A DNA stretch of 64,000 bases from an uncultured Gammaproteobacteria bacterium (GTDB lineage: Bacteria; Patescibacteriota; Microgenomatia; 2-02-FULL-39-11): NCBI GenBank assembly GCA_964544585.1, contig CAZJBV010000001.1, forward strand, positions 119,717 through 183,716. Direction: 5' to 3'. Every line of letters begins with the position of its first letter. Position 1 is the stretch's first letter. This document shows, in pieces, positions 5,706 to 63,314 of the stretch. A program made the position numbers and the translations under genes. The notes below the pieces were generated by a model. It did not search any database. It had not been told where the DNA came from and worked only from the letters and a program-made list of their open reading frames with translations.

Positions 5706-8102
5706 CATTTCCAGTTGAATAAGTCTATTTAGTTCGACTGCGTATTCGAGGGGGAGTTGTTTGACGATGGGTTCTATAAATCCATTGACGACCATGGCTT
5801 CGGCGTCTGGTTTGTTGATACCGCGACTCATGAGGTAAAATAATTGGTCATCGCCAATCTTTGAGACTGTTGCTTCGTGTTCGATGCGACAATCATTGTG
5901 TTTTATATCCATTGTCGGATATGTATCTGATCTAGACTCATCATCTATCAACAAGGCGTCGCAGACGACTTTGGATTTGGCGCCAATTGCACTTTGAAAA
6001 ACCTGAAGAAGTCCTCTATATGATGTCCTTCCTCCACCGTGACTGACCGATTTGGAAGTAATCTTCGAAGAAGTATATGGAGCAAAGTGAATGGCTTTTC
6101 CGCCTGCATCCTGGTGCTGGCCGGGTCCGGCATAGGCAACTGATAGCACCTCTCCTCGAGCTCCTTTGCCCATTAAATAGACGCTGGGGTACTTCATAGT
6201 AAGCTTGGAATTGTGAACTAAAATACCATTTGCAATAAAATTCCCTTTATCAACTTCTATATCAAATGTCTCTTTTGATCCTTGGGGTACAATGCTATTT
6301 ACTCGGACAAACTGAATTGTTGAATCTTTTTTATCATCTCCAAAATATAAGAAATGATGTTTATAAACTTTTTCTTCTATACCAAGTGGTTTTCTCTCTC
6401 TCCTTGTCCAAAGCGAAATTTTCCTTGGAGAAAATTTATCGGTTATGTAACTTAGGTCTTTGACTTGTTGTAATAATTTCTTATTTACCGATGTTATAGA
6501 TATATTTCTATGATTATCACGTCTATATCCATCTGCATCGATATAACCCTCGATGAATGATGTTATTTGGGATTTTGGTAATGTGTAGATCCATTCAGGA
6601 ACTTCTTTGTCTTGCGCTTTTCCTTTGAATCCAAGCTTTACCAAAAAATCAACAAATTTTGTGGAAGCATAACGAACAATATTTCTTTTTATTTCGGGTT
6701 TAAGTCCAAAAAGCTTATTTATTGTTTCAATAACCTTTTTAAAGCTTTTATCACTTTGTGGAACAGCTATATATACTCTTGTTTTGTCCATACATCCATC
6801 ACCAATGTAAAAACCTAGAAGCCATAGCAATTCTTCGCTGCTTATTTCCGGATAGAAAAACTCCTTTTTACCACGTTTGGGGTTAAAATGTATGGGATAA
6901 TTTTTTCCTACCCATGGAAGTTTTCCTGATACTGCAATTAAATCTCCAACTTTTATTTTATCTAAAGGCATCCAATTGAAGTAAGAAATTTTTCCTTTCT
7001 TTTTTAAGACAAGAAAAGGATGATTTGCAGTTGCTTCTACTTCACGAAAATCTTCTGTTGTGATTTTGAAAACTGGAAGGGGGGGATTTTTAACTTTAGC
7101 TAACAATTTGGCTCTTGTTAAGGTAAATTCTGGAGTCATCGAGTATAAATAGTCGCCCGGTCGAATGTCTTTAATGGAAAGAACATGATCATTTGCTATT
7201 ATTTTCGCATCCTCTGTTAAACATCCTAAATTACCGTCGATCCACTCGCCAATTCCCTCTTCTTCGACTCGCATTCTTTTGGTGACGAGATTGTAAACAT
7301 TGGTCGACCAGTTTTGAATGGTGGTATATCTGACTCGTGCTCCTTTTTTGACAAAAATTTCAACAACAGCGGCGTGAAGTGAATCTGTGGTATAAACGGG
7401 AGCGGTGCATCCTTCGACATAATGAACGAAACTACCCTCGTCGGCGATTATTAATGTTCTTTCAAACTGACCCATATTGGCGGCGTTGATACGAAAATAA
7501 GCTTGTAGAGGAAGTTCCACATTGACACCTTTGGGAACGTATATAAATGATCCGCCACTCCAAGTAGCCGAATTTAAAGCGGCGAATTTATTGTCATGTG
7601 GTGGAATGATTGTGCTAAAATATTCTTTGACCAAATCCGGATACTCACGAAGTCCTGAGTCCATATCCAAGAATACTACTCCTTTTTTGCCGAGAGTTTT
7701 TTGGATGCTTTTATATACGACTTCTGACTCATATTGAGCTGAAACACCGCCAAGATATTTTTTTTCTGCTTCTGGAATGCCAATTCGGTCGTAGGTTCGG
7801 CGAATTTCAATAGGTAAATCCTTCCAACTTCTAGCTTTTTTTTCTGTGGGTTTTATATAGTAATAAATGTTGTCGAAATTGATTTTGGAAAGATCTCCGC
7901 CCCAAGCAGGGAGTGTTTTTTTATAAAAGATGTCTAGAGCATCATGGCGAAATTTTCTCATCCAATCCGGTTCATTTTTGTGGTATGAGATTTCATCTAT
8001 CACTAAATGAGAAAGTCCTTTTTTAGACTTGAATGAATAGCGTTCGGCCTCGTGAAAGCCTAGAGGGTAGGAATCGTTAATTGCTATTTGTGATGTGGGC
8101 AT
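5688..8102 (-). CDS. sufB: FeS cluster assembly protein SufB interrupted by an intein
   Basis: An 804-aa ORF. The exteins carry conserved SufB blocks (NWSTNVYNLVTKR, WIDGNLG | SKLTMKYPSVYLMG, GEVLSVAYAGPGQHQDAGGK). A 338-aa insertion begins with Cys and ends with HN, followed by Ser. Confidence 0.85.
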   Translation of the reverse strand: MPTSQIAINDSYPLGFHEAERYSFKSKKGLSHLVIDEISYHKNEPDWMRKFRHDALDIFYKKTLPAWGGDLSKINFDNIYYYIKPTEKKARSWKDLPIEIRRTYDRIGIPEAEKKYLGGVSAQYESEVVYKSIQKTLGKKGVVFLDMDSGLREYPDLVKEYFSTIIPPHDNKFAALNSATWSGGSFIYVPKGVNVELPLQAYFRINAANMGQFERTLIIADEGSFVHYVEGCTAPVYTTDSLHAAVVEIFVKKGARVRYTTIQNWSTNVYNLVTKRMRVEEEGIGEWIDGNLGCLTEDAKIIANDHVLSIKDIRPGDYLYSMTPEFTLTRAKLLAKVKNPPLPVFKITTEDFREVEATANHPFLVLKKKGKISYFNWMPLDKIKVGDLIAVSGKLPWVGKNYPIHFNPKRGKKEFFYPEISSEELLWLLGFYIGDGCMDKTRVYIAVPQSDKSFKKVIETINKLFGLKPEIKRNIVRYASTKFVDFLVKLGFKGKAQDKEVPEWIYTLPKSQITSFIEGYIDADGYRRDNHRNISITSVNKKLLQQVKDLSYITDKFSPRKISLWTRRERKPLGIEEKVYKHHFLYFGDDKKDSTIQFVRVNSIVPQGSKETFDIEVDKGNFIANGILVHNSKLTMKYPSVYLMGKGARGEVLSVAYAGPGQHQDAGGKAIHFAPYTSSKITSKSVSHGGGRTSYRGLLQVFQSAIGAKSKVVCDALLIDDESRSDTYPTMDIKHNDCRIEHEATVSKIGDDQLFYLMSRGINKPDAEAMVVNGFIEPIVKQLPLEYAVELNRLIQLEMEGSVG
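6210..7223 (-). mobile_element. SufB intein with LAGLIDADG homing endonuclease domain
   Basis: Starts at Cys (CLTEDAKII) and ends in VHN followed by the +1 Ser. Two LAGLIDADG-like blocks are present (LLWLLGFYIGDGC and FIEGYIDADGY). It is inserted at the conserved GNLG/S site of SufB. Confidence 0.8.
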
Positions 8103-8874
8103 AGCCTTTTTCCTCCAATTCTTGGGCTAATTTTGGTCCTCCGGTTTTGACTATTTTACCATTAATTAAAATGTGGACAATATTGGGAGTAATATATTTT
8201 AAAATTCTTTGGTAATGAGTGATCATTAGTACTCCTGTACCATTTTTTTTCAATATATTTATACCCTGGGCGACGATTTTGAGAGCGTCGATATCAAGGC
8301 CGGTGTCGATCTCGTCAAAAATGACAAACTTTGGTTTCAATACCAATGCCTGTAGCATCTCAAGCTTTTTTTTCTCTCCTCCGGAAAAACTTTCATTTAT
8401 AGAACGGCGTAAGAATTCGTGAGGGATATGAAGTAAATCAGCTTTTTTTGCCAATTCTTCGTTGAATTTCCAAACTGTTTGCAAGGCAGGATTAGCGATG
8501 GTCTTTGGTCTTTGGTCTTTGGTCTTTGGTCCATGGAGAGATTCAAATGCATTTTTTAATAAATTGGCAACGGTGACACCTGGGACAGGGATGGGGTTTT
8601 GGAATGCTAAGAACAAGCCAGCCCTGGCACGCTTATCTGGAGAAAGATTTCTCATGTCCGTCTTGTCAATTTGAAATTTGATCCCGATTGAATCGGGATG
8701 AAATTTATAGGAGGGGTGTCCCATGAGAGCCTGAGCAAGGGTTGACTTTCCAGAACCATTGGGACCCATCAGGGCATGGACCTCTCCAGACTTTATTTGT
8801 AGCGATATGCCTTTCAAAATCTCTTTTTTTTCTAAGTAAACATGAAGATTCTCAATAGTTAGAGTGTGCTTCAT
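8077..8874 (-). CDS. sufC: FeS assembly ATPase SufC
   Basis: Has the Walker A motif GPNGSGKST, the ABC signature LSGGEKKK and Walker B. Its ATG overlaps the upstream stop in an ATGA arrangement. It contains an in-frame heptamer repeat (PKTKDQRPKT). Confidence 0.85.
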   Translation of the reverse strand: MKHTLTIENLHVYLEKKEILKGISLQIKSGEVHALMGPNGSGKSTLAQALMGHPSYKFHPDSIGIKFQIDKTDMRNLSPDKRARAGLFLAFQNPIPVPGVTVANLLKNAFESLHGPKTKDQRPKTIANPALQTVWKFNEELAKKADLLHIPHEFLRRSINESFSGGEKKKLEMLQALVLKPKFVIFDEIDTGLDIDALKIVAQGINILKKNGTGVLMITHYQRILKYITPNIVHILINGKIVKTGGPKLAQELEEKGYAHITNSN

Positions 8875-9440
8875 ATCGGTAATGTTAAGTCGACGGAAGT
8901 AAAACTTTTCCCTCGGGTGGCCCAATCGACTTTTATTTCTCGCCTTCCTTTGGCATCGAGGAAATACAAAGCGCCATATTTTTTGCCGTATTCGTAAAGA
9001 CTCCTGGTGATTTTAACATCTGAAAGGCAATATTGGCAAAGAGCGTCCCACTCTCCTTTTTTGAAGTACTCAATGGCTTTTAGTCCATGACCCTGCTTTT
9101 TTGTTCCAATTGTGGCTTTCGCAAGATCATCGAGGGCAACTCTAAAGCCGAGAGCTTTTTGGGCATCTTCGATAATATCAAGAACGGGAAATTTGAAAAT
9201 ATTACCGAGATAGTAAGGGGCAAGAACTTCGAGATCAAATTTGCGAATATTGAATCCGACTAAAAGTGAAGCGTGCTCTAATTTTTTAAAGAGATAGATT
9301 AAATCTTTTTCCAGATATGTTTCAAACTTGTTTGTGGCATAATCATAAATTCCCACAACTGAAACTTTGAGTTTTCTGTGGTCGTAGCCTACATCGGTAA
9401 AGAGATTTTGTGTTTCTAAATCAAGAACTATTGGGTGCAT
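8871..9440 (-). CDS. DEDD-family 3'-5' exonuclease (DnaQ-like fold)
   Basis: Has the N-terminal Exo I motif VLDLETQ and length and pattern consistent with RNase T/oligoribonuclease-like exonucleases. Confidence 0.55.
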   Translation of the reverse strand: MHPIVLDLETQNLFTDVGYDHRKLKVSVVGIYDYATNKFETYLEKDLIYLFKKLEHASLLVGFNIRKFDLEVLAPYYLGNIFKFPVLDIIEDAQKALGFRVALDDLAKATIGTKKQGHGLKAIEYFKKGEWDALCQYCLSDVKITRSLYEYGKKYGALYFLDAKGRREIKVDWATRGKSFTSVDLTLPI

Positions 9441-9446
9441 AGAAGT

Positions 9447-9983
9447 TTAGAACTTAAATTTTTGCAGAGCGATTTTGAGCCAGGGAGTATATTGATCAGG
9501 TTTTGCCTCTATATTTTTTTTCAGATCTTCAATTTTTACTTGTTGTGTCTGGGTAATTTCAACAGGATTGGGATGAATGACTTTATCAGTTTTCCCAACT
9601 AAAACATGGCAGTATTCATTTTCGCAACTTTGGCCATATTTGGCGAAATAATAAAACGCACCTAAATCTTTAAATTCAACTTCGACGCCTAATTCTTCTA
9701 ACCCACGTCGTTTGGCTGCACTTGTGACTGTCTCGCCTGGAAGGACATGACTAACTACTGATGCATCCCAAAATTTATTCCACAATGATTTTTTATCGCT
9801 TCTTTTTTGTAGAAAAATAAAGTCTTCCTCTGTGTAAAGTAAGGCTAGAAAGGCCAAATGGGGAATACCTTTTTCGAAATGGCATTGCCTGCGGGTGGCA
9901 GTGCCAATTATTCTGCCAATAGTATCAGTCGTTTGAAGAAGTTGATTTTCTCTTTCTCCTCTTAAATCATGAATATTATCCAT
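9447..9983 (-). CDS. NUDIX-fold hydrolase, IDI-1 (isopentenyl-diphosphate isomerase)-like
   Basis: The HLAFLALLY...LQKRS...W...ETV..AA.RR..EELGV pattern resembles type 1 IDI and the NUDIX fold. Confidence 0.45.
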   Translation of the reverse strand: MDNIHDLRGERENQLLQTTDTIGRIIGTATRRQCHFEKGIPHLAFLALLYTEEDFIFLQKRSDKKSLWNKFWDASVVSHVLPGETVTSAAKRRGLEELGVEVEFKDLGAFYYFAKYGQSCENEYCHVLVGKTDKVIHPNPVEITQTQQVKIEDLKKNIEAKPDQYTPWLKIALQKFKF

Positions 9984-10014
9984 AGGCTCCCATTATAGCA
10001 TCGAAAAATAAACT

Positions 10015-10040
10015 CACACGGCTTTAATTTAAGCCGTGTG
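10015..10040 (-). terminator. rho-independent terminator hairpin (cacacggctt-taattt-aagccgtgtg)
   Basis: A perfect 10-bp stem followed by a T-tract on the minus strand, immediately downstream of the small Pro-rich gene. Confidence 0.7.
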
Positions 10041-10061
10041 AGCTAAACTTTGTTCATTTTA

Positions 10062-10259
10062 TTACATTGCCGGACCCTGCGAAGGAGGTGCTGACGGTTG
10101 GCCACCGCCGGTATTGCCAGTATCTCCACCTGATGGCGGAGGTGTAGGTTGGGGTGGAGGCGGCATTGGACCTGAATCTCCCGGAGGAGTTGGTTGTGGT
10201 CCACCCGGAGTTTGACCTGGCATACCTGGAGCTGGTGCATTTGGATCTTGCTGCATCAA
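10062..10259 (-). CDS. small proline/glycine-rich protein (65 aa) in a GC-rich island
   Basis: A strong SD (ggaggtga) lies 7 nt upstream of the ATG. It is the only one of three overlapping frames with an RBS. Local GC is far above the genome background. Confidence 0.5.
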   Translation of the reverse strand: MMQQDPNAPAPGMPGQTPGGPQPTPPGDSGPMPPPPQPTPPPSGGDTGNTGGGQPSAPPSQGPAM

Positions 10260-10437
10260 TAATCACCTCCCTTCAAACGGGACAAAACCTATCGGTTTTT
10301 TCCCGACGATTTTCCCTAATTTGAATTTGCAAAGGGGAAAAATTCCAATCCACCCCTTTGCAAAGATTAGAACCTGTTTTTGTTTCTTTATTCTTCTTTA
10401 CAGTGTACTAAACGATCTCAGATTATACAAGAGTGAA

Positions 10438-10749
10438 TTATTTATTTAATTCATTTTCCATCCAGTTTTTGGCATCGCTATTTACTCTGGTTATGGGAGT
10501 TGCCGTCAAAACAAATGTTTCATAACTATGAAGTTTTTTTATTTCTTTTTCTATTTTTTCGAAATCAGATTCACGCCCATCCATCGTCAGTAATATTTCA
10601 TTTGCCTCTTCAACTTTTTCTTTCCACGGATATATTGAAGAGACAGGAATCCGTTTGGTGCAGACGACAAGATGTAATGAAATCAGGTGCGAAGCAATTT
10701 TTTTTGCTTCTTTATCACTCCCGCACGTAAGAAAATAGATGGCAAACAT
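10438..10749 (-). CDS. divalent-cation tolerance protein CutA-like
   Basis: About 100 aa with a CutA1-like pattern (C...A..IA..L.....V.C.....S.Y.W.G). Confidence 0.55.
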   Translation of the reverse strand: MFAIYFLTCGSDKEAKKIASHLISLHLVVCTKRIPVSSIYPWKEKVEEANEILLTMDGRESDFEKIEKEIKKLHSYETFVLTATPITRVNSDAKNWMENELNK

Positions 10750-10774
10750 ATACTAAATTTATTATACAGGAAGA

Positions 10775-11818
10775 TTAAAATGAGATGATATCGAGAATTG
10801 CGTTTAGAGGGTCTTTATTTTCTTGTAACAGCTCACCGGTTTCGGCGGAAACTATAACTTCTTCTTTTATAGAAACAGGAATTAATCCGAGAAGTTTTTG
10901 ATCAGAAATTCCACTAATTTCATAAACGGGTAGCTCATTTTGAAAACCTAATTCTATGACGCCTTGAATATTTGTCAGGCTTCCCTCCAAAACTTGGGAA
11001 GTTATGGCTTCGGTTCCCAAGCGATCGATGACATTAGCGGCAAGCATATTTTGTATTGCTTGATCGGGTAATATGGCAACTTCTTTGGTGCCGGCTGGTG
11101 TCGTAACTGTCAAAATATTTGTAGCCAGATCAACAGAGAGAGGAAAATTGGTTTGGGCGGCAAATTGTCCCCTGGAAAAAACCATTCTGTCACCGCCAGC
11201 AGTTGCTATTTTGACGACATTTTGATCCAATCTTTCTTCGATCTTAAATAATTCTTGTTCGCCAAGTTCGGATTCGGTGCCATCCTCATTTTCTGCTTTA
11301 ATGATGAGCCTGCCGTCTTTGGTTTCAAAGCGTACTTTTACTCCACCTGAATAAATATCTGTTCTAGTCTCACCGTCTTTAATTCTAGTTTTTATTTTTT
11401 CATCTTCACCAAAACGAATTTCAGTTTTTTGATCTTCTTGTCTTATTCTAATGCCTGATGTTGGCTGAACTGATTGTGTATTCTGGGATCCTGATGAGCC
11501 GTCTGAGGATGAGCCAGATGATCCGGAACCGGATGAGCCGGAATTATCATCGGAACTACCACCGTCGCCTGAACCTGAACTATCTCCCCCTCCACTACCT
11601 GACGAACCGCTACCTGATGAGCCACTTCCAGACCCACTTGATCCTCCACTATCTTCGCCTTCTTTAGCGTATACGGCGCCTAAAATATTGTCGTCTTTGT
11701 ATATGAGCTGACCTTGGCCGTCAACATACCATGCAGCAGAGATCTTGGTGGGAATAAAAAATGGAAAGGGAAAAAGAATAATTAGAAGAAAAATAAAAGC
11801 CGTATTCTTTTGGGACAT
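10775..11818 (-). CDS. secreted protein with Gly/Ser-rich low-complexity linker
   Basis: An N-terminal signal/TM segment, then a long SGSGSSGSG tract, then a beta-rich C-terminal domain. Confidence 0.45.
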   Translation of the reverse strand: MSQKNTAFIFLLIILFPFPFFIPTKISAAWYVDGQGQLIYKDDNILGAVYAKEGEDSGGSSGSGSGSSGSGSSGSGGGDSSGSGDGGSSDDNSGSSGSGSSGSSSDGSSGSQNTQSVQPTSGIRIRQEDQKTEIRFGEDEKIKTRIKDGETRTDIYSGGVKVRFETKDGRLIIKAENEDGTESELGEQELFKIEERLDQNVVKIATAGGDRMVFSRGQFAAQTNFPLSVDLATNILTVTTPAGTKEVAILPDQAIQNMLAANVIDRLGTEAITSQVLEGSLTNIQGVIELGFQNELPVYEISGISDQKLLGLIPVSIKEEVIVSAETGELLQENKDPLNAILDIISF

Positions 11819-11850
11819 TAATTAAGTATAGATTGAGAAAGATTATCGTG

Positions 11851-12663
11851 TCAAGAATTTGACCGGAAGAATTCGAGGGTGGTGCATTTGACCGATCCTC
11901 CGCCTTTGAAATATTCATTCATAGGTGTTTCAAAAACTTTTAATCCTTCTTTTTCCAGTGTCCTTTTTATATCTTTACTCATTCCCTTCCCTACAATTAC
12001 GGCATCATCGGTTGCTACTATATTACAACAAAAAAATGGGTTATCTTTTTTAGAAACTGTTATTACTTTGCGAAAATTCTTTTTTATTTTATCGATATCA
12101 TCATTTGAAAATGATGCTGGATGGATTATAACTTTGCCTTTTCCTAGAGGGGCAAAGCAGGTATCGAGGTGAAAGAAGTATGGATCTTTTTTTACCATAA
12201 AAGTAATAATTTTTTCTCCTAATATATTTTCAAGATGTCCGATTGCTTTTTTAGATGTTCTCCTGCCGTAGGCTGCGAAAAATTTACCATCTCTAAAAAA
12301 TAGATCACCTTGACCTTCAAAGTAGACATTTGATGGAAGAGTGGCTATTTTAAATTTTTTTTGGCGGAATAATTTTTCGGCAAAGTCCGATTCTTTTCTC
12401 CTTTGCTGGTAGCGGAAATTGGCTTTAATGAATAGATTGTCAATGACAAATCCGCAATTGGCAGTGTAAACCATATCAGGAAGGCCGGGTTCCGGATCCA
12501 TGATCCAGACATCAAGTCCGATTTTTTTGTAAATATTCTTGAGATTATCGAATTCTTCATGGGTTCTCTCGGGGTCGACTTTATTTTCCACGTGCATCCA
12601 GGGATTTATCTCGTATTCAATTTGATAGTATTTGGGCGGACACAAAAGGACTGTGTTGATCAT
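11851..12663 (-). CDS. amidinotransferase/DDAH-like guanidino-group modifying enzyme
   Basis: FHLDTCFAPL and the C-terminal GGGSVKCTT motif (catalytic Cys) are typical of the arginine deiminase/DDAH/amidinotransferase superfamily. Confidence 0.6.
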   Translation of the reverse strand: MINTVLLCPPKYYQIEYEINPWMHVENKVDPERTHEEFDNLKNIYKKIGLDVWIMDPEPGLPDMVYTANCGFVIDNLFIKANFRYQQRRKESDFAEKLFRQKKFKIATLPSNVYFEGQGDLFFRDGKFFAAYGRRTSKKAIGHLENILGEKIITFMVKKDPYFFHLDTCFAPLGKGKVIIHPASFSNDDIDKIKKNFRKVITVSKKDNPFFCCNIVATDDAVIVGKGMSKDIKRTLEKEGLKVFETPMNEYFKGGGSVKCTTLEFFRSNS

Positions 12664-55808: not shown

Positions 55809-57410
55809 TTACATAGATAATGCTAGAATACAATAGTTCAAAACGGGGTGTAGGTCATCGGTAGACCGCGCGCATGGGGTGCGTGAAGTAGTGGGTTCAA
55901 TTCCCGCCACCCCGACAGATAGAGAGTCCGCGAAGCGGACGGAAGGTTGGGTCTGCGCGCCCCCACTCGCGCAGACTTCTGCAAAGCCCTGATTATATTC
56001 TGGGACAAGCCGCCGATCAGTTAAAAAGAAGTTCGAGCCGACAGTTTTTGCCATGATCGACAGATCATGGGATGTATTTTTTGCGCGCGCGATTTTTGCG
56101 CACGATAGTGCGCTACCAATGAAGTTTTTGAAAGGTTCGAGCCAACTCGAACCATTTTGTTTTATTTGTTCTAATTCTTCACTTATTTTTAATTTTTCTT
56201 CGAAAAATTCGTTCTTTTTTGTCTTGTAAATTTCGGGGTCAATAATTCCTTCTAAGTAACCATCTAAGAGTTTATTAAGTTTTACATCAATATCTTTTAA
56301 TTGCTGCTCTAATTTTAGGGTATTATCGTGAATGGATACAGTCTCTAATTTCTCATCCTCATCTAGCCATTTATACCAATTACTAGCCCATTTTTCTGGT
56401 AATGCAACATCATCAATGGCTTTTCTAAATTGTTGTTCAAGCTCTGGTTCTGAAATGTAAGGTTGATTGCAGGGTTTAATTTTTTTAGTACATCTATAGT
56501 AAACATATTCAACAGTTCTATTTGTTCCTTTGTAGAATTTTTTATGAGATTCAGCGGTAATAGTTGCTCCACACTCTCCACATCTCATTAAACCCATAAA
56601 GGGGAAATTATATCTTCTTTTTTTATGTCTATCCCTAAACTTTAATTCTTGCTGGACTTTTTGGAATAACTCTTTACTTATAATAGTTTTATGAGTACCC
56701 TCGTGATATTCTCCGTTGTAATACATTATGCCTATGTAAAATCTGTCTGATAAAATCTGGCGGATTTGATTTATATGTAGGGGTTTATCAATTTTTCTTT
56801 TAAGGTCAAACTTATATAGAAAGGTCGCAATATCAGTAAAAGTTTTGTCGCCTTCGCTAAATAATTCAAAAGCCTTCTTAATTGCTTTTAGTTTTTCTCC
56901 ATCTACATCTATCCCACGGGTTTTAGGATTATTAATATACCCATAAGGAGCTTTGCCAGGATAAACACCATTGCGGATTTTTTGTCTTAACCCACGTCTT
57001 ACATTTTCAGATAAATTATCCACATAATATTTACTCTGACCAAAGGCAATATTTAACATAAATTTTCCCTGGGGAGTATTTTCAAACCAAGAGGTCGGAA
57101 ATTTTAAGTCCTTCAATTTCCCGGTATCTAAAAGGTAAATTATTTTCCCACCATCTATTGAGTTACGAGCTAATCTATCAGGATGCCACGCAATAATCCC
57201 TTGTATATGACCTTTTTCTATTTTCTTCAAAACTTCCGCAAATTTTTCTCTGCCCGGAATCTTGGCAGTTTTTTCTTCTTCAACAAATTCGGTAATTTCC
57301 AAATGCTCTCTTTTAGCGTATTCTTTTAGCTCGGCAATTTGAGCAGAGATAGATAAAATCTGTTTATCTTTTTCTTCTCTGGATTTTCTACAGTAAGCAA
57401 TGTATTTCAT
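55809..57410 (-). CDS. large serine recombinase (resolvase domain + recombinase domain + zinc ribbon)
   Basis: An N-terminal YCRKSREE...SISAQ catalytic-serine motif, a recombinase domain, and CGECG...YYRC. The last ~90 codons read through IR1-L and antisense tRNA-Pro (GIEPTTS), so the true C-terminus is uncertain. Confidence 0.8.
   Translation of the reverse strand: MKYIAYCRKSREEKDKQILSISAQIAELKEYAKREHLEITEFVEEEKTAKIPGREKFAEVLKKIEKGHIQGIIAWHPDRLARNSIDGGKIIYLLDTGKLKDLKFPTSWFENTPQGKFMLNIAFGQSKYYVDNLSENVRRGLRQKIRNGVYPGKAPYGYINNPKTRGIDVDGEKLKAIKKAFELFSEGDKTFTDIATFLYKFDLKRKIDKPLHINQIRQILSDRFYIGIMYYNGEYHEGTHKTIISKELFQKVQQELKFRDRHKKRRYNFPFMGLMRCGECGATITAESHKKFYKGTNRTVEYVYYRCTKKIKPCNQPYISEPELEQQFRKAIDDVALPEKWASNWYKWLDEDEKLETVSIHDNTLKLEQQLKDIDVKLNKLLDGYLEGIIDPEIYKTKKNEFFEEKLKISEELEQIKQNGSSWLEPFKNFIGSALSCAKIARAKNTSHDLSIMAKTVGSNFFLTDRRLVPEYNQGFAEVCASGGAQTQPSVRFADSLSVGVAGIEPTTSRTPCARSTDDLHPVLNYCILALSM
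55844..55915 (+). tRNA. tRNA-Pro (anticodon GGG)
   Basis: Cloverleaf: acceptor cggggtg/caccccg, D stem ggtc/gacc, anticodon stem cgcgc/gcgtg with loop aTGGGgt, T arm gtggg-ttcaatt-cccgc, discriminator A. Confidence 0.75.
55913..56015. repeat. IR1-L: 103-bp perfect inverted copy of 57519-57621
   Basis: Exact reverse complement of IR1-R. It starts 3 nt inside the 3' end of tRNA-Pro. It contains the internal hairpin gtctgcgcg-agtggggg-cgcgcagac. Confidence 0.9.
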
Positions 57411-57518
57411 TTTTTATTTTCCTCTTATAAGAAGAGTTCTTTTGCGAGCGAAGCGAGCAGTCCCGATGATATATCGGGACAAAATTTTTGCGTTCCTCGT
57501 TTTTTGTTCTTTTTAACC

Positions 57519-57700
57519 GGCGGCTTGTCCCAGAATATAATCAGGGCTTTGCAGAAGTCTGCGCGAGTGGGGGCGCGCAGACCCAACCTTCCGTCCGCTT
57601 CGCGGACTCTCTATCTGTCGACCTTTTTAAAAAAATCCGAACTCGCTTTAAGTCGAATCGGTAGGCGCGCTACGCGCGCCATCTTATCCGCTCGGCCTTC
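57519..57700. repeat. IR1-R (57519-57621) fused to IR2-L (57615-57700): the junction segment of two inverted-repeat-bounded modules
   Basis: The left 103 nt are the exact reverse complement of 55913-56015. The right 86 nt are the exact reverse complement of 62493-62578. Confidence 0.9.
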
Positions 57701-57850
57701 GGCCGAAGCTCTTAAACTGTCGGCCGAACCAGTCCGTAGGACTGCAAAAAACGCAAAAATTTTAAAGAACTTTTGTTATTTCTGTTTGCTTATTCCAATT
57801 TGGCATATTACATTTTGGAATATATCATATACTGTATCTTATTTTCAACT

Positions 57851-58078
57851 ATGAAAAAATCTATTTTTTCGGAGGATCATAAATATTTAGTAAGTCAACT
57901 TAAAAAAGCCAGAGAAGAAGCATCTCTTGAGCAAGAAGAGGTGGCTAAGTTACTTGGAAAAACTCAATCTTATATTTCAAAAATAGAGTCAGGTCAAAGA
58001 AGAATAGACATCGTTCAATTAAAACAATTTGCGAAGTTATACAAGAAAGAGGTTAATTTCTTTATTAAAAAGGCATGA
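57851..58078 (+). CDS. XRE-family HTH protein, probable R-M controller (C) protein
   Basis: A 75-aa Cro/C1-type HTH (QEEVAKLLGKTQSYISKIESGQR). Its stop overlaps the downstream ORF start (ATGA), as in C-R operons. Confidence 0.6.
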   Translation: MKKSIFSEDHKYLVSQLKKAREEASLEQEEVAKLLGKTQSYISKIESGQRRIDIVQLKQFAKLYKKEVNFFIKKA

Positions 58079-58920
58079 GAAGAAAAGAAATAATTAAATT
58101 TATCACCGGAATGATCGAAGAAGGTGGATTAACCTTTACTGATTATGCGACTAAACTCGAGGAGATAGTTAATAAACTATCGTTGGAAGATATAAAAATA
58201 AGCCTACTTGAATGTGGCGTAATCCCAGAGTCTTTTAATCACGATTCAACGGAAGAAAAATTATATTCAAAATATTCAGATATGTTACTTGCAAGAGCGT
58301 TCACATTCATCGGAATAGATTCCAAAGTTATTAAAGAAAGAGCAGATGCGGCAGATGTTGAGGGTAAAACTAAAGACTACACTCTTGTTGCAGATGGAAA
58401 GGTCTTTCGGTTAAGCCGAACTGCTAAGAATCAGAAGGATTTTAAGGTCGAAGCGTTAGATAAATGGAGGAACGGTAAAGATTTCGCTTGTTTGGTATCT
58501 CCTCTTTATCAATACCCTAAAAGTAAAAGTCAAATTTATAGACAAGCTATTGGTAGAAATGTTACCTTATTTTCCTATATCCACCTATATTTTATTCTCT
58601 CTCAAAATAAGTCGAACCAGTGCAACTATAAACCCTTATGGTTGGTTAGTAAGAAATTAAAAGGTGCAAAAGGAGCAGTAACTTATTGGAAGGGAATTGA
58701 TAAGACGCTTTGCAAAATCCTAAATAAAAGTCTAAAAGAGCTAGAAGCGATTAAAAAACTTGAGCTTGATTTACTAAAAGAATCTGCAAAAGAAGAAGTG
58801 GCATATATTGAAGGTAAAATTGAAACAATAAAATCATTATCACATACCGAGGCTATTGAGAGATTAATAAAAGCAGAAAAACTTGATCAGAAAATTAATC
58901 AAATAACAAGAATGGCTTGA
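58075..58920 (+). CDS. putative Type II restriction endonuclease (by context)
   Basis: A 281-aa protein with no family signature recognised. It is translationally coupled to the C-protein and convergent with the methyltransferase. There is a possible PD-(D/E)xK arrangement (GID ... DVEGK). Confidence 0.35.
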   Translation: MRRKEIIKFITGMIEEGGLTFTDYATKLEEIVNKLSLEDIKISLLECGVIPESFNHDSTEEKLYSKYSDMLLARAFTFIGIDSKVIKERADAADVEGKTKDYTLVADGKVFRLSRTAKNQKDFKVEALDKWRNGKDFACLVSPLYQYPKSKSQIYRQAIGRNVTLFSYIHLYFILSQNKSNQCNYKPLWLVSKKLKGAKGAVTYWKGIDKTLCKILNKSLKELEAIKKLELDLLKESAKEEVAYIEGKIETIKSLSHTEAIERLIKAEKLDQKINQITRMA

Positions 58921-60495
58921 TTAAAATAGAGGTTCCTGATTTACTTTACCATTTTTTGGATTAGAAACATAAGCTCCATTTAATCTTTTTTTGGCAATCT
59001 CGCAAAATTCACTGGAAATTTCAAAACCAATATATTTTCTATTAAGATTCTTTGCCGCAATAGCGGTCGAACCGGAACCAAGAAATGGATCCATAATAAC
59101 CTGACCATCTTTTGTTACAAGCCTAATTAAATATTCTAATAACTCCACTGGCTTCTGTGCTTCGTGTAGTCCTCCTTCGCCTTTGCCAAAACCAAACTGT
59201 AGAATATTTGTCGGAGATTTTCCGTTGATTAAAGACGCATCTATATTCATGGCTCCTACTTTATTTTTTAGTACATTATCTGTAATTGTAATTTCATAGG
59301 GTTTAAATAACCAGGCAATCGGTTCATATTTTGGCGCGAGATTACCAACCTTCCAACCTTCCCATTCCTTTGCTTCTTCTACCAATCCTCTTTTCTTAAT
59401 AATTTCACTTATATATTGAGCTCTGTGATGAGCATTTGGTTTTTCCCAAGCTAGGATATCTCTTAACAGAAACCCACTATCTTCAAGAGCTATAATTGCC
59501 CTGTGCAGAGTTCTTCTTGCGCCGAAAATAAATATACTTGCGCCTTCTTTTAAAGAAGGGTAGAGCTTTTTTGCCCACGAATAACACCATTCTTGGTATT
59601 CTTTTGGGATATTTCTGTCTGCGCTTGACCACCCATTAATAGGTTTTCCTCTTCTCCGAAATGCCTTTTTGCCTATCTGTGCAGGTGATTGTCCTAAAAG
59701 GGCGGAGTTTGTGTTAGCGTGTAAAACATCCCATTCATCCAGTGATATTCCATAAGGAATATCCGACAGAACTAGATCTATTGAATCCGGCTTCACCTTA
59801 TCTAGAAGTTCTATAGCATCACCACAAAGAATTTGATTTTCTTCAATATATTCGGATGGACTAACTTTATTTTCAGTTTCTGGAGGTAAATTAGTTTTGG
59901 TATTGAGATTTTTAATAATGTCAATAACAATTCCTTGCACAATTAAATTTTCTGGATCAACAAAAAATGGATCTAAACTTGAATTTGCTGGCTGAAGTCT
60001 TATTTTTCCTCTTTCCCTATATAATTTTTTCAAAGTTACTTCTGAATTGTTTATTAATGCAACTACTTTTTGTCCATTATCGGCTGTAGGTTGGCTTTTT
60101 ACTATTACTATATCTCCATGATCAATATTTTCATCAATCATACTTTGTCCAGCAACACGTAGGCCGTAGAAATCACCATTTTTCGGTATTTTTGATTTTG
60201 GTACTGCTATAAACTCTTTATCTTCAATAGCTAAAATTGGTTGTCCCGCAGCAATAGTGCCAAGCAGAGGAATCTGTACCATTTGCATCTCATCATACAC
60301 ATCAATTGCCCGAGGCTGATTTTCTTCTTTTCTTAACAAACCCAAATCTTCTAATGCCTTGACGTGATGATGGGCTGTTGAAACAGAGGATAGCCTTAAA
60401 TGCTTCTTTATTTCTTCCAAAGAAGGAGCATAACCATGTTTAGTTTTGTAGGATTTTATATATTCCAGAACTTGCTTTTGTCTTTTTGTAATCAT
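58921..60495 (-). CDS. LexA repressor (HTH + S24 peptidase) fused to a beta-class N4/N6 DNA amino-methyltransferase
   Basis: The N-terminal ~205 aa have the LexA architecture: a wHTH domain, the AAG cleavage site (TIAAGQP), catalytic Ser (AGQSM) and Lys (TLKKL). The C-terminal ~320 aa have motif IV SDIPYG preceding motif I DPFLGSGST (PF01555-like). It is a single open frame with no internal start. Confidence 0.75.
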   Translation of the reverse strand: MITKRQKQVLEYIKSYKTKHGYAPSLEEIKKHLRLSSVSTAHHHVKALEDLGLLRKEENQPRAIDVYDEMQMVQIPLLGTIAAGQPILAIEDKEFIAVPKSKIPKNGDFYGLRVAGQSMIDENIDHGDIVIVKSQPTADNGQKVVALINNSEVTLKKLYRERGKIRLQPANSSLDPFFVDPENLIVQGIVIDIIKNLNTKTNLPPETENKVSPSEYIEENQILCGDAIELLDKVKPDSIDLVLSDIPYGISLDEWDVLHANTNSALLGQSPAQIGKKAFRRRGKPINGWSSADRNIPKEYQEWCYSWAKKLYPSLKEGASIFIFGARRTLHRAIIALEDSGFLLRDILAWEKPNAHHRAQYISEIIKKRGLVEEAKEWEGWKVGNLAPKYEPIAWLFKPYEITITDNVLKNKVGAMNIDASLINGKSPTNILQFGFGKGEGGLHEAQKPVELLEYLIRLVTKDGQVIMDPFLGSGSTAIAAKNLNRKYIGFEISSEFCEIAKKRLNGAYVSNPKNGKVNQEPLF

Positions 60496-60602
60496 AGATA
60501 TTGACAGCTCAAGAATAATTCTATACAATTAGGTTAATCGAAAATGAATCGAAAGTCAAGTGGTTAAAATTTAACCTGAAGATTAAAGGGGGTGATGAAA
60601 AT

Positions 60603-60815
60603 ATGACTCATCGTAAAGGATCAAAACCAAATCATAAAGGAGAGCAGTGGACAGAATCACAAGTTGAGCGTCTTGAGAATTTGGCTAAAAGGAATACACC
60701 TACCCCTTTAATTGCAGATGCATTAGGTAGAACGGAGGGGGCAATAAGATCTAAAACATCGGAAGAGAATATTTCTCTTAAGCCAATCAATAAATCTCCC
60801 TATAGTAGAAGGTAA
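60603..60815 (+). CDS. small GcrA/Myb-like HTH protein
   Basis: W-T-E..V..L..L......P..IA..LGRT..A...K resembles the GcrA N-terminal/SANT-like DNA-binding fold. A good SD (aagggggtga) lies upstream. Confidence 0.35.
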   Translation: MTHRKGSKPNHKGEQWTESQVERLENLAKRNTPTPLIADALGRTEGAIRSKTSEENISLKPINKSPYSRR

Positions 60816-60836
60816 AATAGAATTGATAAAGCAATT

Positions 60837-61814
60837 ATGGACTTATTTTCGAAAGTCAAACCATCACTTTTTATAGCCCGTCCTTGGGATACATCCTTTG
60901 CTGAACTTTATGAACCCATTAAGAAAAACCTCGTTGGTAAATGGGAAATTAATGACGGCCCCCTTATAGTTAAAGAAGATGAGGCTCAAGCAGAAAGAGA
61001 AATGTTCATAGGTAGAAACAAGCAACTGTACGAACAGATTGTTTTAGGGATAAAGAAGTCAGATGTCTTTATTGCCGATGTAACAAATGCTAATGCAAAC
61101 GTTATGATGGAATTAGGAATTGCAATACAACTAAACAAAAATGTCATTATAGTGACAGGGCAAGATAGGAATAGACTCCCGTTTGATATACAGGGTTTTA
61201 AAGCAGAAAAATATGATAATATAAATGACCTCGGTGAAAAAATTGGAAATGGACTTTCTTTATATTTATCAATAAAAGAACAGAATTTTGATAAGCCCTT
61301 TCCAGAAAACCACATACCTATATCTGATGGGAAATTAACGGGACTTAGGGCAATAATGCCGATTCAACTTTCCAAACCTATTAAAAATTTAAAGCTGAGA
61401 ATCGAATACAAATTTGTAAATAAATCTGATGATCAGGATTGGCTAGGAATACATTTGCGAGCATCTCCCTCTATTCAACCTTCTGAATTAGTGTATGTTA
61501 GATCAAATGGTAGCTTAGAGATTGTAACGCTCCCTACCAGACCTGCACCCTCGGTAGGAGTAGATAAAGAAAATATAGATAACAGGTTAGAAGATGGATA
61601 CACTAGATTAGAACTAATTCTTGATGGCAATAAATTACTGGCCGCTACCTCAACTAAAGAGTTATATGACGATTTAATTCAAATAGAATCGTTCGGCAGT
61701 ATATTTCTTCAGGCAAATGGACATAGCCAAGATCCACAAAAACGAGAGAGTCTTGAGATTGATTTTAGAAATTTTGAAATTATTAATATAGATACGACAA
61801 GTCCTAACTCGTAA
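60837..61814 (+). CDS. nucleoside 2-deoxyribosyltransferase-like (NDT/TIR-like Rossmann) N-domain protein with unknown beta-rich C-domain
   Basis: The N-terminus (LFIARPW ... SDVFIADVTNANANVMMELGIAIQLNKNVIIV) resembles the PF05014/PF15891 fold. The C-terminal 180 aa are unassigned. Confidence 0.45.
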   Translation: MDLFSKVKPSLFIARPWDTSFAELYEPIKKNLVGKWEINDGPLIVKEDEAQAEREMFIGRNKQLYEQIVLGIKKSDVFIADVTNANANVMMELGIAIQLNKNVIIVTGQDRNRLPFDIQGFKAEKYDNINDLGEKIGNGLSLYLSIKEQNFDKPFPENHIPISDGKLTGLRAIMPIQLSKPIKNLKLRIEYKFVNKSDDQDWLGIHLRASPSIQPSELVYVRSNGSLEIVTLPTRPAPSVGVDKENIDNRLEDGYTRLELILDGNKLLAATSTKELYDDLIQIESFGSIFLQANGHSQDPQKRESLEIDFRNFEIINIDTTSPNS

Positions 61815-62492
61815 ATTATATTTTTATTTTTTAACCTTTGAAGCGGCTCCGCCGCCCCCGCCCTGTTGGGGATAATTTCCCTTAAAGGAGGGCTGCCGTC
61901 AGAAAAACTTTCAAGTAGGGAGCTAAAAGAAAATCTGGGATAGGCAGCCCGACAAACGCGAGAGCCGAGAGGAATATTTTCGGATTATAGAAAAACTCGG
62001 CTCGAGCCATCGGAATCAGTAGCGTAGCGAGCTCTCGAGAGCGAGCAAGCGGTGGGAAGCAGAAGGGGTACAAATAATAAAGGCGGGGGCGAAAAGCGGA
62101 ATACCCCCGCAACGGCAGGAGATACTAAAACAGAAAAAGGGGAGGCGAGGAGCGGCCGAAGGCTATTTTGTTCTTCGCTCCTCGCCGTGGTAGAGACTGT
62201 AAAGCGAAAATAGAAAACCCCTAATATGGGAAAGGCTCCCCCTAGGGAGCCCTCTCGCCCAAAAGCGGGGGTGCCGCTTCCTTTTAATTGGGTGGGAGGG
62301 ATGATGGGAATTTGTACCAGCGTATAGATATATGTTTTTAAAGGGAGCGTTAAGTTAGTTTTCCGCGGATGGGTGGGTTGGGCCAAGGAAAACATTTGTG
62401 TTTTTGTTACTTTACCTGTCCGCGTCAGCGGACTATAATAAATAAAAATCGCGCGCATTTCTGTCTTTGCAAAAAATACTAGAGCGAGGCCA
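61815..62492 (+). other. GC- and purine-rich non-coding segment with dense local hairpins (candidate structured RNA)
   Basis: No credible ORF. GC is far above background. There are multiple perfect hairpins (gaggcgaggagcg/cgctcctcgcc, ggctccccctagggagcc, gcgggggc...gcccccgc). Confidence 0.35.
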
Positions 62493-62578
62493 AAGGCCGA
62501 GCGGATAAGATGGCGCGCGTAGCGCGCCTACCGATTCGACTTAAAGCGAGTTCGGATTTTTTTAAAAAGGTCGACAGA
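62493..62578. repeat. IR2-R: 86-bp perfect inverted copy of 57615-57700
   Basis: Exact reverse complement. Contains the hairpin ggcgcgc-tac-gcgcgcc. Confidence 0.9.
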
Positions 62579-62651
62579 ATACGAATTCACAGAAGAAGAG
62601 TCACGGAGGCTCTGCGCGGGTGGGGGCGGGGGGGATCCTTCAAGAATTGAA

Positions 62652-63314
62652 TCAATTGCAGTTCCAATAACAAAAGGTAATTTTGCCAGTAATACTTTCT
62701 CTGGGAATAAATCCTATAAATCTAGAATCGGCACTATTGGGTCTATTGTCTCCTAAGACAAAATAATGACCGGAAGGAATAGTAACTTCATTATCCTCAG
62801 GAAGAAAAGTTCCCCCCATTGTCGTTATATTTGGGGGGAGGTATTTACTATCATCTAATTTTTTACCATTTATGTATACTTGACCACCTTGAATCATCAC
62901 TTTTTCACCTGGTAATCCTATGACTCTTTTGAAATAGTCGATATCTTTATTATCAGGTGCCTGAAATACAACAACATCATATCGATTGATCGTATCACTA
63001 GAGTAGACAACTTTAGCCACATAATATTGACCATCTTTATAAGAAGGATTCATCGCGATTCCCTTTATTTGAATTGGTTTAATAAAGAAGAGATATGTTA
63101 CAACACCAAATGACAAGGCTAATAATAATGCTAAGGGGAGAGTAAGAAGTATTTTAAGCCATTTGGGCCAGAAGGTAAATCGCCACATGATAATTATGCC
63201 AATTATAAATAGTAGGTTCCATATAATTCCTAGAACTAGTAATACAATTGTGATGATTGTAATCGTAGTTGGAGAAATACGGGCTTTGGATTGGAATTTA
63301 CTTGGCATAAACAA
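62652..63314 (-). CDS. lepB: signal peptidase I
   Basis: An S26 family protein with the SM(N)PS-like box (GIAMNPS), KR box (FKRVIGLPGE) and GDNR..S.DSR box. Confidence 0.85.
   Translation of the reverse strand: MFMPSKFQSKARISPTTITIITIVLLVLGIIWNLLFIIGIIIMWRFTFWPKWLKILLTLPLALLLALSFGVVTYLFFIKPIQIKGIAMNPSYKDGQYYVAKVVYSSDTINRYDVVVFQAPDNKDIDYFKRVIGLPGEKVMIQGGQVYINGKKLDDSKYLPPNITTMGGTFLPEDNEVTIPSGHYFVLGDNRPNSADSRFIGFIPRESITGKITFCYWNCN

Follow-up and report, generated by a model that had tools for sequence, protein, structure and literature searches.

What do two adjacent genes, both annotated 'hypothetical protein', contribute to the restriction-modification (R-M) island in which they lie? The genes encode proteins of 70 amino acids (aa), hereafter p70, and 325 aa, and the island is part of a 64,000-nucleotide (nt) stretch of contig CAZJBV010000001.1 (the window). 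By exact look-up p70 is HYW54_00875 and the 325-aa protein is HYW54_00880 of a Candidatus Gottesmanbacteria metagenome-assembled genome. Both open reading frames (ORFs) proposed in an earlier, sequence-only reading of the window were found (the coordinates of all features are collected in Table 1), and in the window ORF list they lie on the same strand, 21 nt apart. The methylase that this reading had placed next to them is present as well, in the form of a LexA::N6_N4 DNA methylase fusion whose gene ends 75-107 nt upstream on the opposite strand. The two ORFs are real genes and not chance ORFs, because they have many homologue clusters and loci and because the pair recurs, in identical order, in independent assemblies from six other sequencing runs.

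The answer towards which we lean, tentatively, is that the R-M island carries a second-layer module made of a Myb-like DNA-binding regulator or adaptor and a sensor-effector N-glycosidase, probably de-repressed by DNA damage. The p70 and 325-aa genes would then be accessory cargo of a ~6.7-kb integrative R-M island at tRNA-Pro of a Candidatus Gottesmanbacteria genome, would most likely form one operon and would add a second, non-restriction anti-phage layer. Both proteins fit known kinds, p70 the helix-turn-helix (HTH) regulators found in defence operons and the 325-aa protein the effectors that couple a Rossmann-type nucleotide-cleaving domain to a sensor domain, and the predicted folds are compatible with this reading and with all the rival explanations that we weigh below. 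To our knowledge few defences beyond R-M have been characterised in bacteria of the candidate phyla radiation (CPR). If our reading is true, a candidate effector consisting of one protein is added to these, in which a lectin fold is joined, in a new combination, to a domain like those of nucleoside 2-deoxyribosyltransferases (NDT) and TIR proteins, and which appears to be coupled to the LexA::methylase fusion of a minimal serine-recombinase island.

Predicted fold and family of p70

The AlphaFold2 model of p70, built on a 34-sequence alignment, consists of a single three-helix domain (helices at aa 18-29, 34-41 and 45-55, with a predicted local distance difference test score (pLDDT) of 84-90 there) and a 15-aa tail, both termini being disordered. 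The W-T-E...IA..LGRT pattern that had been read from the sequence is present, and across 47 diverse, cross-phylum members of the family W16, N31, P33 and R43 are invariant, as are L59, P61, N63, P66 and Y67 in the tail. The modelled helices and the invariant W16 are those of a tri-helical HTH fold. When the profile of the 47 members was compared with the PDB it matched c-Myb with an E-value of 9.3e-4, and also DnaJC1-SANT, DMP1 and CDC5L. Foldseek comparison of the p70 model with the PDB returned nothing significant (best E 0.9), its neighbours all being tri-helical HTHs (Tc3 transposase, homeodomains, the Myb-like domains of CDC5 and DMP1, KorA and NarL). Judged by its model and by these profile matches, p70 is a tri-helical Myb/SANT-type HTH protein.

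The window protein itself had no match in Pfam (E<=1), NCBIfam or PADLOC, and the PHROG scan gave one weak match, to 'transcriptional regulator, D5-like' (3.4e-7). Matches were obtained with its 47 relatives, to Pfam Myb_DNA-binding (PF00249) in ten of them (best E 6.4e-5), to HTH_upst_double_PIN in four and to GcrA (PF07750) in three (best E 0.067), and a few members bear the automatic UniRef names 'Myb-like domain-containing protein' or 'GcrA cell cycle regulator'. Nearly all the weak, consistent profile matches are thus to Myb, SANT or GcrA, although those of the window p70 fall below the family thresholds. Like p70, the Myb/SANT and GcrA N-terminal DNA-binding domains (PF00249, PF07750) have three short helices with a tryptophan before helix 1 and are basic. 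In contrast to them p70 is a stand-alone protein of 68-72 aa with an extra invariant tail, SLKPTNQSPYNRR, and it has neither a second Myb repeat nor a GcrA C-terminal domain.

GcrA is a protein of ~170 aa with an N-terminal DNA-binding domain, a linker and a C-terminal domain that binds sigma-70. The sequence-only reading had described p70 as GcrA/SANT-like; the Myb/SANT-type fold stands, but we rejected membership of the GcrA family, as p70 misses the PF07750 threshold and its 70 aa leave out the C-terminal domain. Comparison with the GcrA DNA-binding domain in the PDB gave E-values of 0.5-0.9 (0.52 with the 47-member profile), which are not significant. These results also bear on a rival explanation of p70, the one offered by the sequence-only reading, in which it would be a GcrA-like reader of N6-methyladenine that binds according to the methylation written by the neighbouring methylase (HmaB or HsdM elsewhere) and so tunes transcription of the system. 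The Myb/GcrA-type HTH is what such a reader would have; the lack of a significant GcrA match and of the C-terminal domain speaks against it.

Genomic neighbourhoods of p70

A word-indexed search yielded 38 clusters of p70 homologues, and a pattern search combined with tblastn in one genome per species yielded at least 565 confirmed loci with 51-65% identity to the CPR query, in Proteobacteria, Planctomycetota, Bacteroidota, Nitrospirota, Actinomycetota, Patescibacteria and other phyla. The protein is also encoded in 70 IMG/VR viral contigs and six sequenced Pseudomonas phages, and the P. aeruginosa version occurs on at least 1000 contigs. Neighbourhoods were counted in the best-scoring 80 of the more than 565 loci, after ORFs had been called, neighbours clustered and cluster representatives annotated. 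A gene on the same strand follows p70 in 59 of 73 loci, at a distance of 60 nt or less in 41, and a same-strand gene precedes it in 55 of 72. In genomes p70 is therefore usually operon-internal.

The commonest home of p70 relatives is the Hma, or type-1 BREX-related, system, which accounts for 28 of the 80 loci. The order is WYL regulator (PF13280), p70, HmaA, embedded cargo (often HEC-08 or HEC-09) and HmaB, where HmaA is an SNF2 helicase with a NOV_C nuclease (PADLOC PDLC00659, E=0) and HmaB a DUF1156 methylase (E=0). The Hma paper (Hma references: Payne et al. 2021; bioRxiv 10.1101/2024.01.29.577857; PMC12839542) gives such systems in ~1,485 of >230,000 genomes, so that their presence at 35% of p70 loci represents a large enrichment, with the caveat that the 80 loci are the best-scoring subset. 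The window island itself holds no HmaA, HmaB or HmaC and is related to Hma only through the relatives of p70. Type I R-M systems account for a further nine loci, in the order HsdR-HsdM-HsdS-p70-nuclease-ABC ATPase-331-aa protein. In three of the fetched loci, which we cite by L numbers (L030, L035 and L086, ~7990-12000), the cassette after HsdS comprises p70, a pPIWI-associating-type nuclease (PF18165), an AAA_15/AAA_21 ATPase with DUF3696 and the unannotated 331-aa protein. A CPR type I R-M system (L005, 6423-8848) has three genes inserted between hsdM and hsdS, for a 188-aa protein, a 339-aa protein and a p70 homologue; the 339-aa protein has no Pfam match, its N-terminus looks proteasome/Ntn-hydrolase-like by eye, and its gene overlaps that of the p70 homologue.

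For the remaining loci, neither Hma nor type I R-M, the 134 immediate neighbours were scanned in bulk. The commonest families were Peptidase_S24 (6), LexA_DNA_bind (5), Peptidase_M78/CapP (5) and Shedu SduA (3), besides RmrA, HTH_3, MADS mad3 and mad8, IetA, PifA, GajA, AriA and DolB. A LexA-like gene adjoins p70 divergently in L022, L024, L081 and L091, the same layout as in the window, and the contigs are from CPR or Patescibacteria insofar as their records give a CPR lineage.

Taken across these loci, p70 members are typically encoded just after, or divergently from, a regulator of the WYL, LexA or CapP-like type, and 20-35 nt further on begins the gene of a putative toxic effector, which would be a pPIWI-associated-type nuclease, the HmaA helicase-nuclease or, in the window, the 325-aa protein. 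WYL, LexA and CapP-like regulators have been described as responsive to damage or infection. We propose that p70 may bind DNA and, as a regulator or adaptor, gate the effector encoded after it. In its setting it resembles the known regulators of defence operons (R-M C proteins, BrxR/CapW WYL proteins, CapH/CapP), which are small DNA-binding proteins encoded at the head of, or just before, a toxic component, and it co-occurs with WYL, LexA and CapP-like regulators. It differs from them in that its HTH is Myb-like and not of the HTH_3 or winged HTH-WYL type, and in that it is additional to such regulators, the island already having a C protein; its regulatory role is putative.

The neighbourhoods bear in two ways on p70 as a methyladenine reader. 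Its place within adenine-methylase-based systems in 37 of the 80 best loci, and beside an N6_N4 methylase in the window, agrees with such a role, and conservation at 51-65% identity across phyla fits a generic feature such as DNA better than variable partner proteins. Against this, p70 also adjoins methylase-free systems (Shedu, Gabija-like, CapP), the methylases that do accompany it differ in specificity, in most viral loci, described below, no known partner was detected, and in the three annotated phages it lies among tail genes. We regard a reader of this kind as very unlikely.

The high conservation of this 68-aa protein despite its variable partners suggests, at the level of sequence, that it recognises something generic, either DNA or a conserved host machine. 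On the most far-reaching reading, immunity based on DNA modification (Hma/BREX-related systems, R-M of types I and II) and prophages alike would have the 68-72-aa Myb-like protein as an unrecognised, near-universal accessory module. Through the HTH it would read DNA, perhaps the state of methylation or damage, the invariant tail SLKPTNQSPYNRR would dock on a conserved host machine such as RNA polymerase, and the protein would license the expression or action of the effector encoded directly after it, here a new LexA-controlled NDT-lectin abortive-infection enzyme. We consider this a long shot.

We found no description of the p70 family as part of a defence locus, whether Hma, type I R-M or another kind. 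In the passages of the Hma/BREX-related literature that we searched (Payne et al. 2021; bioRxiv 10.1101/2024.01.29.577857; PMC12839542) the helicase, methylase and ATPase are treated and the small protein and the WYL gene go unmentioned, and literature searches for a named small Myb-like component of Hma, BREX or WYL-regulated systems gave nothing relevant. Our reading, if true, would add a highly conserved small HTH protein, lacking a Pfam, NCBIfam or PADLOC model, that has been overlooked in Hma/BREX-related and type I R-M-embedded defence operons of hundreds of species and in P. aeruginosa prophages, and p70 would become a testable candidate for the gating of these systems.

Domains and relatives of the 325-aa protein

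The AlphaFold2 model of the 325-aa protein (pLDDT 86, predicted template modelling score 0.80) has an alpha/beta domain at aa 1-148 and an all-beta domain at aa 159-317. The NDT/TIR-like Rossmann domain that had been read at its N-terminus is marginal by sequence and clear by fold. With Pfam PF05014 (NDT) aa 47-113 reach 29.9 bits, where the cut-off is 28.8, the PADLOC TIR-effector model PDLC00733 matches with 3.4e-8 over aa 66-135 only, and PHROG 3634 matches with 1.1e-13; the fold is the Rossmann-like one of NDT and Rcl. Profile alignment with solved NDTs and with DNPH1 gives the motif D77-x3-D81-x4-N86-x-N88-V-M-M-E92-L-G94, in which E92 occupies the position of the nucleophile glutamate (VELG), and D81, N86, N88, E92 and G94 are invariant in 38 sequences of the family. 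Compared with the NDT, DNPH1 (Rcl) and MilB N-glycosidases (PF05014), the protein adds a 170-aa lectin-fold domain and scores just above the Pfam threshold, and the Asp that lies two turns before the Glu in NDT appears, in a gapped alignment, to be replaced by Asn.

For the remaining ~180 aa the sequence-only reading had seen no recognisable family. This holds by sequence for the window protein, whose C-domain matches no sequence family including PF06439, but the predicted structure gives it a ConA-like lectin beta-sandwich of the ConA-like/DUF1080 superfamily. Five of 22 C-domains of relatives match PF06439 (DUF1080) weakly (best E 0.0016), and the distant relative P0112 alone passes its threshold (29.6 bits against 26.8). 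In contrast to other members of the ConA-like superfamily (CBM66, galectins, GH32 C-domain, LamG, DUF1080/PF06439), the C-domain, which is cytoplasmic, is joined to a domain for nucleotide processing. The many polar residues that are invariant in it, K183, N184, D201, W202, H206, R208, E217, Y220, R222, H296 and D319, suggest a conserved binding or catalytic pocket, and its polar motif set (KNL, DWLG-H-R, SELVYVR, LDTT) was matched to no family. The family profile also returned TDP2 (E 0.05-0.08), which we dismissed as spurious.

The 325-aa protein has 64 clusters of full-length homologues with 38-99% identity, all from CPR Microgenomates (Levybacteria, Gottesmanbacteria) where a lineage is named. 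A profile hidden Markov model of the C-domain found only 48 members among 1.84e9 representative proteins. Ten distant C-domain relatives were scanned and nine have an NDT-like N-domain, each match below the Pfam cut-off. In the tenth, P0139 (434 aa), SIR2_2 takes the place of the NDT-like head, and hhalign assigns the C-domain to the family with 96% probability (E 3.7e-9). By analogy, this swap of an NDT-like for a SIR2 head on one tail is the pattern of sensor-effector defence proteins. The C-domain is more variable than the N-domain (mean pairwise identity of 49.0% against 56.5%). In the relative P0142 the N-terminal segment looks, by eye, DUF4062/TIR-like.

We propose that the 325-aa protein acts as a single-chain sensor-effector. 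The C-terminal lectin-fold beta-sandwich would bind the trigger, which may be a glycan, a nucleotide-sugar or a phage protein, and the N-terminal NDT/TIR-like N-glycosidase domain, through Glu92, would then cleave NAD+ or a (deoxy)nucleotide so that the infected cell is arrested. In this the protein resembles single-chain NADase or nucleotidase effectors (CBASS/Pycsar TIR, ThsB, DSR2- and Avs-type SIR2 fusions), in which a nucleotide-cleaving domain of Rossmann-like fold is likewise coupled to a binding domain that is separate and more variable. Unlike these it has no partner signalling gene, its putative sensor is a ConA-like beta-sandwich and it is restricted to CPR. No solved structure combines both domains, and PADLOC, NCBIfam and PHROGs contain no whole-protein family for it or for p70. 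The NDT-like and ConA-like architecture has no solved or curated counterpart, and neither protein belongs to a curated family beyond the marginal NDT match.

Promoter, intergenic motifs and the LexA::methylase fusion

The 107 nt between the ATG of the lexA::methylase gene (60495) and that of p70 (60603) contain in turn a promoter, a direct repeat, a palindrome and the ribosome-binding site GGGGGTGA. The promoter agrees with TTGACA-17-TACAAT at 11 of 12 positions. The direct repeat ATCGAAAATGAATCGAAAGTC occurs once in the window and, among 100 fetched loci, only in island copies and in the lexA-p70 intergenic region of L081, an unrelated Patescibacteria genome whose LexA closely resembles, by eye, the LexA part of the fusion. 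In the island copy of a different sample (L101) the promoter and the direct repeat are unchanged and the palindrome GGTTAAAATTTAACC has become AGTTAAAATTTTAACT through paired substitutions. There is no terminator-like site between p70 and the 325-aa gene. From the promoter, the motifs and this uninterrupted spacing we infer that the two genes form an operon under a repressor that would bind these motifs and would most simply be LexA.

Against the NCBIfam lexA equivalog model the LexA moiety of the fusion scores 182 bits (threshold 111), and as read from its sequence it retains both the AAG site of cleavage and the catalytic motifs GQSM and LKK. RecA-stimulated self-cleavage would separate the DNA-binding domain from the methylase. 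We picture expression from the TTGACA-17-TACAAT promoter as repressed through the repeat and palindrome downstream of it, plausibly by LexA::methylase, which would make the operon SOS-inducible. The fusion itself, a complete LexA joined in frame to the N6_N4 methylase in 524-535 aa (58921-60528, minus strand), is present in several independent assemblies, with 96% aa identity in a second sample.

Competing explanations and genomic contexts

Several observations weigh against a damage-inducible defence module. On the side of control, the promoter scan as a whole did not exceed the shuffled background (7 sites against 5.9 expected), the 21-nt direct repeat links only the window island and L081, and a comparison of the sequences upstream of lexA in L003, L022, L024, L081 and the window, made to define a CPR LexA box, showed no common palindrome. 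On the side of the proteins, no PADLOC system model spans either of them whole, the Pfam CAP12/Pycsar TIR (PF10137) match to the 325-aa protein is below threshold, and its N-domain is closer to enzymes of nucleotide metabolism (NDT, MilB, DNPH1) than to TIRs. Among genomic contexts, homologues of the 325-aa protein lie beside L19 and PfkB in L001 and among nucleotide and cell-envelope (housekeeping) genes in L016 and L017. Nor is p70 a constant partner of the 325-aa family, the pair being kept only in close relatives of the island. In viral genomes, 34 of 69 p70 loci (IMG/VR, L103-L172) carry a conserved convergent ORF of ~57 aa adjoining p70, with opposite-strand genes downstream, and most have no detected known partner genes, an HsdM-type methylase being nearby in only 4 of 69. 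As p70 stands there beside a convergent ORF or tail genes, its role need not be tied to a defence effector.

The sequence-only reading had proposed a check on co-occurrence of the pair with methyltransferases in other genomes, and none appeared: five other genomic contexts of 325-aa homologues (six loci, two of them from the same region) have no conserved partner and no adjoining methylase, and tblastn found no p70 in them. One of these homologues (L015) lies within another serine-recombinase/TraG-like element. In L003 (5468-7998, Levybacteria) a homologue directly follows unannotated 75-aa and 766-aa proteins without Pfam matches, the genes overlapping or abutting, an arrangement that could be a different multi-gene version of the system.

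Such contexts make room for a metabolic explanation, in which the 325-aa protein would be a CPR enzyme of nucleoside or nucleotide salvage or detoxification (an N-glycosidase of the NDT/DNPH1/MilB type), its lectin-fold domain binding a sugar or nucleotide-sugar substrate, the R-M adjacency incidental and p70 a separate regulator. CPR bacteria depend on scavenged nucleotides. By sequence and by fold the N-domain is most like NDT, DNPH1/Rcl and MilB, the catalytic-type Glu is kept, and the C-domain resembles carbohydrate-binding modules and DUF1080/3-keto-disaccharide hydrolase. The housekeeping or glycosyltransferase neighbours in L001, L016 and L017, the failure to find relatives in viral contigs and the constant architecture within one CPR lineage point the same way. 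However, no metabolic neighbour is conserved, the family sits on integrative elements in two different genomes and is rare (64 clusters; 48 C-domain representatives), the 325-aa gene diverges faster than the adjacent R-M genes, and the same C-domain is joined to SIR2, a combination typical of defence effectors. We judge the metabolic explanation unlikely; if it is true, the 325-aa protein would be an unusual nucleoside-salvage enzyme, of relevance to nucleotide scavenging in CPR.

The viral loci favour a different account of p70, that of a mobile-element or phage 'moron' factor acting on the host, as a superinfection-exclusion factor, a modulator of host transcription or half of a small toxin-antitoxin-like pair, which hitch-hikes in defence islands and is unrelated in function to the 325-aa protein. 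In three annotated temperate Pseudomonas phages p70 is a reverse-oriented insert in the block of tail genes and overlaps a convergent ORF of ~55 aa (L098, 4677-5001; L099, 4977-5310; L100, 4992-5313), and there it looks 'moron'-like. Its presence in the 70 viral contigs, the recurrent pairing with a convergent ORF in reverse orientation to the downstream genes, and its spread over P. aeruginosa contigs fit this account, as does the limitation of the p70/325-aa pairing to the island lineage, and the invariant C-terminal tail suggests a conserved host target. What is hard to square with hitch-hiking is that p70 in genomes mostly lies inside operons, closely flanked by defence genes on either side, and fills the same slot in 28 Hma systems. 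In the window, p70 and the 325-aa gene are 21 nt apart with no terminator between them, which speaks for co-transcription. Taking both sides together we hold a moron role to be quite unlikely and continue to lean towards a regulator or adaptor paired with a sensor-effector.

Structure and divergence of the island

The 325-aa protein is encoded in a defence island, the surrounding element being an R-M island. Its R-M system is of type II with a C protein, the N6_N4_Mtase match (2.6e-45) standing beside the endonuclease and control-protein matches given in Table 1; p70 and the 325-aa gene are not defined parts of type II R-M systems. Besides this system the cargo consists of p70, the 325-aa gene and a non-coding stretch of ~670 nt.

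Table 1. Positions of the genes, domains, regulatory motifs and attachment-site arms in the window (pI, isoelectric point; '.', no strand).
Feature	Coordinates	Strand	Remarks
p70, 70-aa ORF	60603..60815	+	ATG start; basic, pI 10.2; Myb/SANT-like HTH; near-invariant C-terminal tail SLKPxNxSPYxRR
325-aa protein gene	60837..61814	+	ATG start; two domains, NDT/TIR-like and ConA-like beta-sandwich (predicted)
N-domain of 325-aa protein (aa 1-148)	60837..61280	+	Rossmann-like NDT/MilB/DNPH1/TIR fold
C-domain of 325-aa protein (aa 159-317)	61311..61787	+	Predicted ConA-like lectin/CBM66/galectin/DUF1080-type beta-sandwich
Promoter, sigma-70-type	60501..60529	+	Near-consensus TTGACA-17-TACAAT; faces p70 gene; kept in L101
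Direct-repeat operator-like motif ATCGAAAATGAATCGAAAGTC	60537..60557	.	GAAA-N7-GAAA; 21 nt; also in L081
Palindrome GGTTAAAATTTAACC	60562..60576	.	15 nt; between promoter and ribosome-binding site
LexA::N6_N4 DNA methylase fusion	58921..60495	-	524 aa from ATG; ORF reaches 60528; divergent from p70
HindIII-family restriction endonuclease	58075..58920	+	RE_HindIII 2.2e-76
Controller (C) protein-like HTH_3 regulator	57851..58078	+	Upstream of endonuclease; HTH_3 and PADLOC control-protein matches
Large serine recombinase	55809..57410	-	tRNA-proximal island end
tRNA-Pro	55844-55916		Borders attL-side arm
attL-side arm	55913..56015	.	Directly after tRNA-Pro; core CGACAGA in common
attP-like copy, inverted, intact	57518..57704	.	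Two arms and core; between recombinase and cargo
attR-side arm	62488..62578	.	Island end

Two perfect inverted repeats were found, 55913-56015 with 57518-57620 and 57614-57704 with 62488-62578. They delineate att-like sites that share CGACAGA: on the left tRNA-Pro, core and arm P' (attL, 55905-56015), on the right arm P, core and flank (attR, 62488-62595), and between the recombinase and the cargo an intact inverted P-core-P' copy resembling attP. A direct repeat of the tRNA-Pro 3' end was searched for as a marker of the island end and none was found, so that the ends were set by the two inverted-repeat arms sharing the core. This arrangement fits a 6.67-kb element integrated at tRNA-Pro, 55913-62578. 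The inverted attP copy could stem from misassembly, or it may be real and permit flip-flop or an alternative mode of integration; breaks occur in other assemblies near 57745 and at 61895-62016. At its C-terminal end the recombinase ORF runs through the att arm into the tRNA, so that this end of the protein would not be the same in the integrated element as in the excised one (compare ORF 57488-57664).

In the L101 copy the order of the five genes is unchanged and nt identity over 57747-62016 is 89%, which indicates that the block has been maintained through divergence. At the aa level identity is 96% for the C protein, 94% for the endonuclease, 96% for the LexA::methylase fusion, 91% for p70 and 82% for the 325-aa protein, whose gene is the fastest-evolving member of the block.

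The non-coding stretch (61815-62487) is GC-rich, with many hairpins and no convincing ORF. Rfam gave no family for it, either over the entire window or, in E-value mode, over 61700-62750, and its folding z-score is only -2.4. The stretch could be a small structured RNA or a terminator-like element. Its stem GGGCTGCC...GGCAGCCC is replaced in L101 by GGGCAGCACC...GGTGCTGCCC, a compensatory change.

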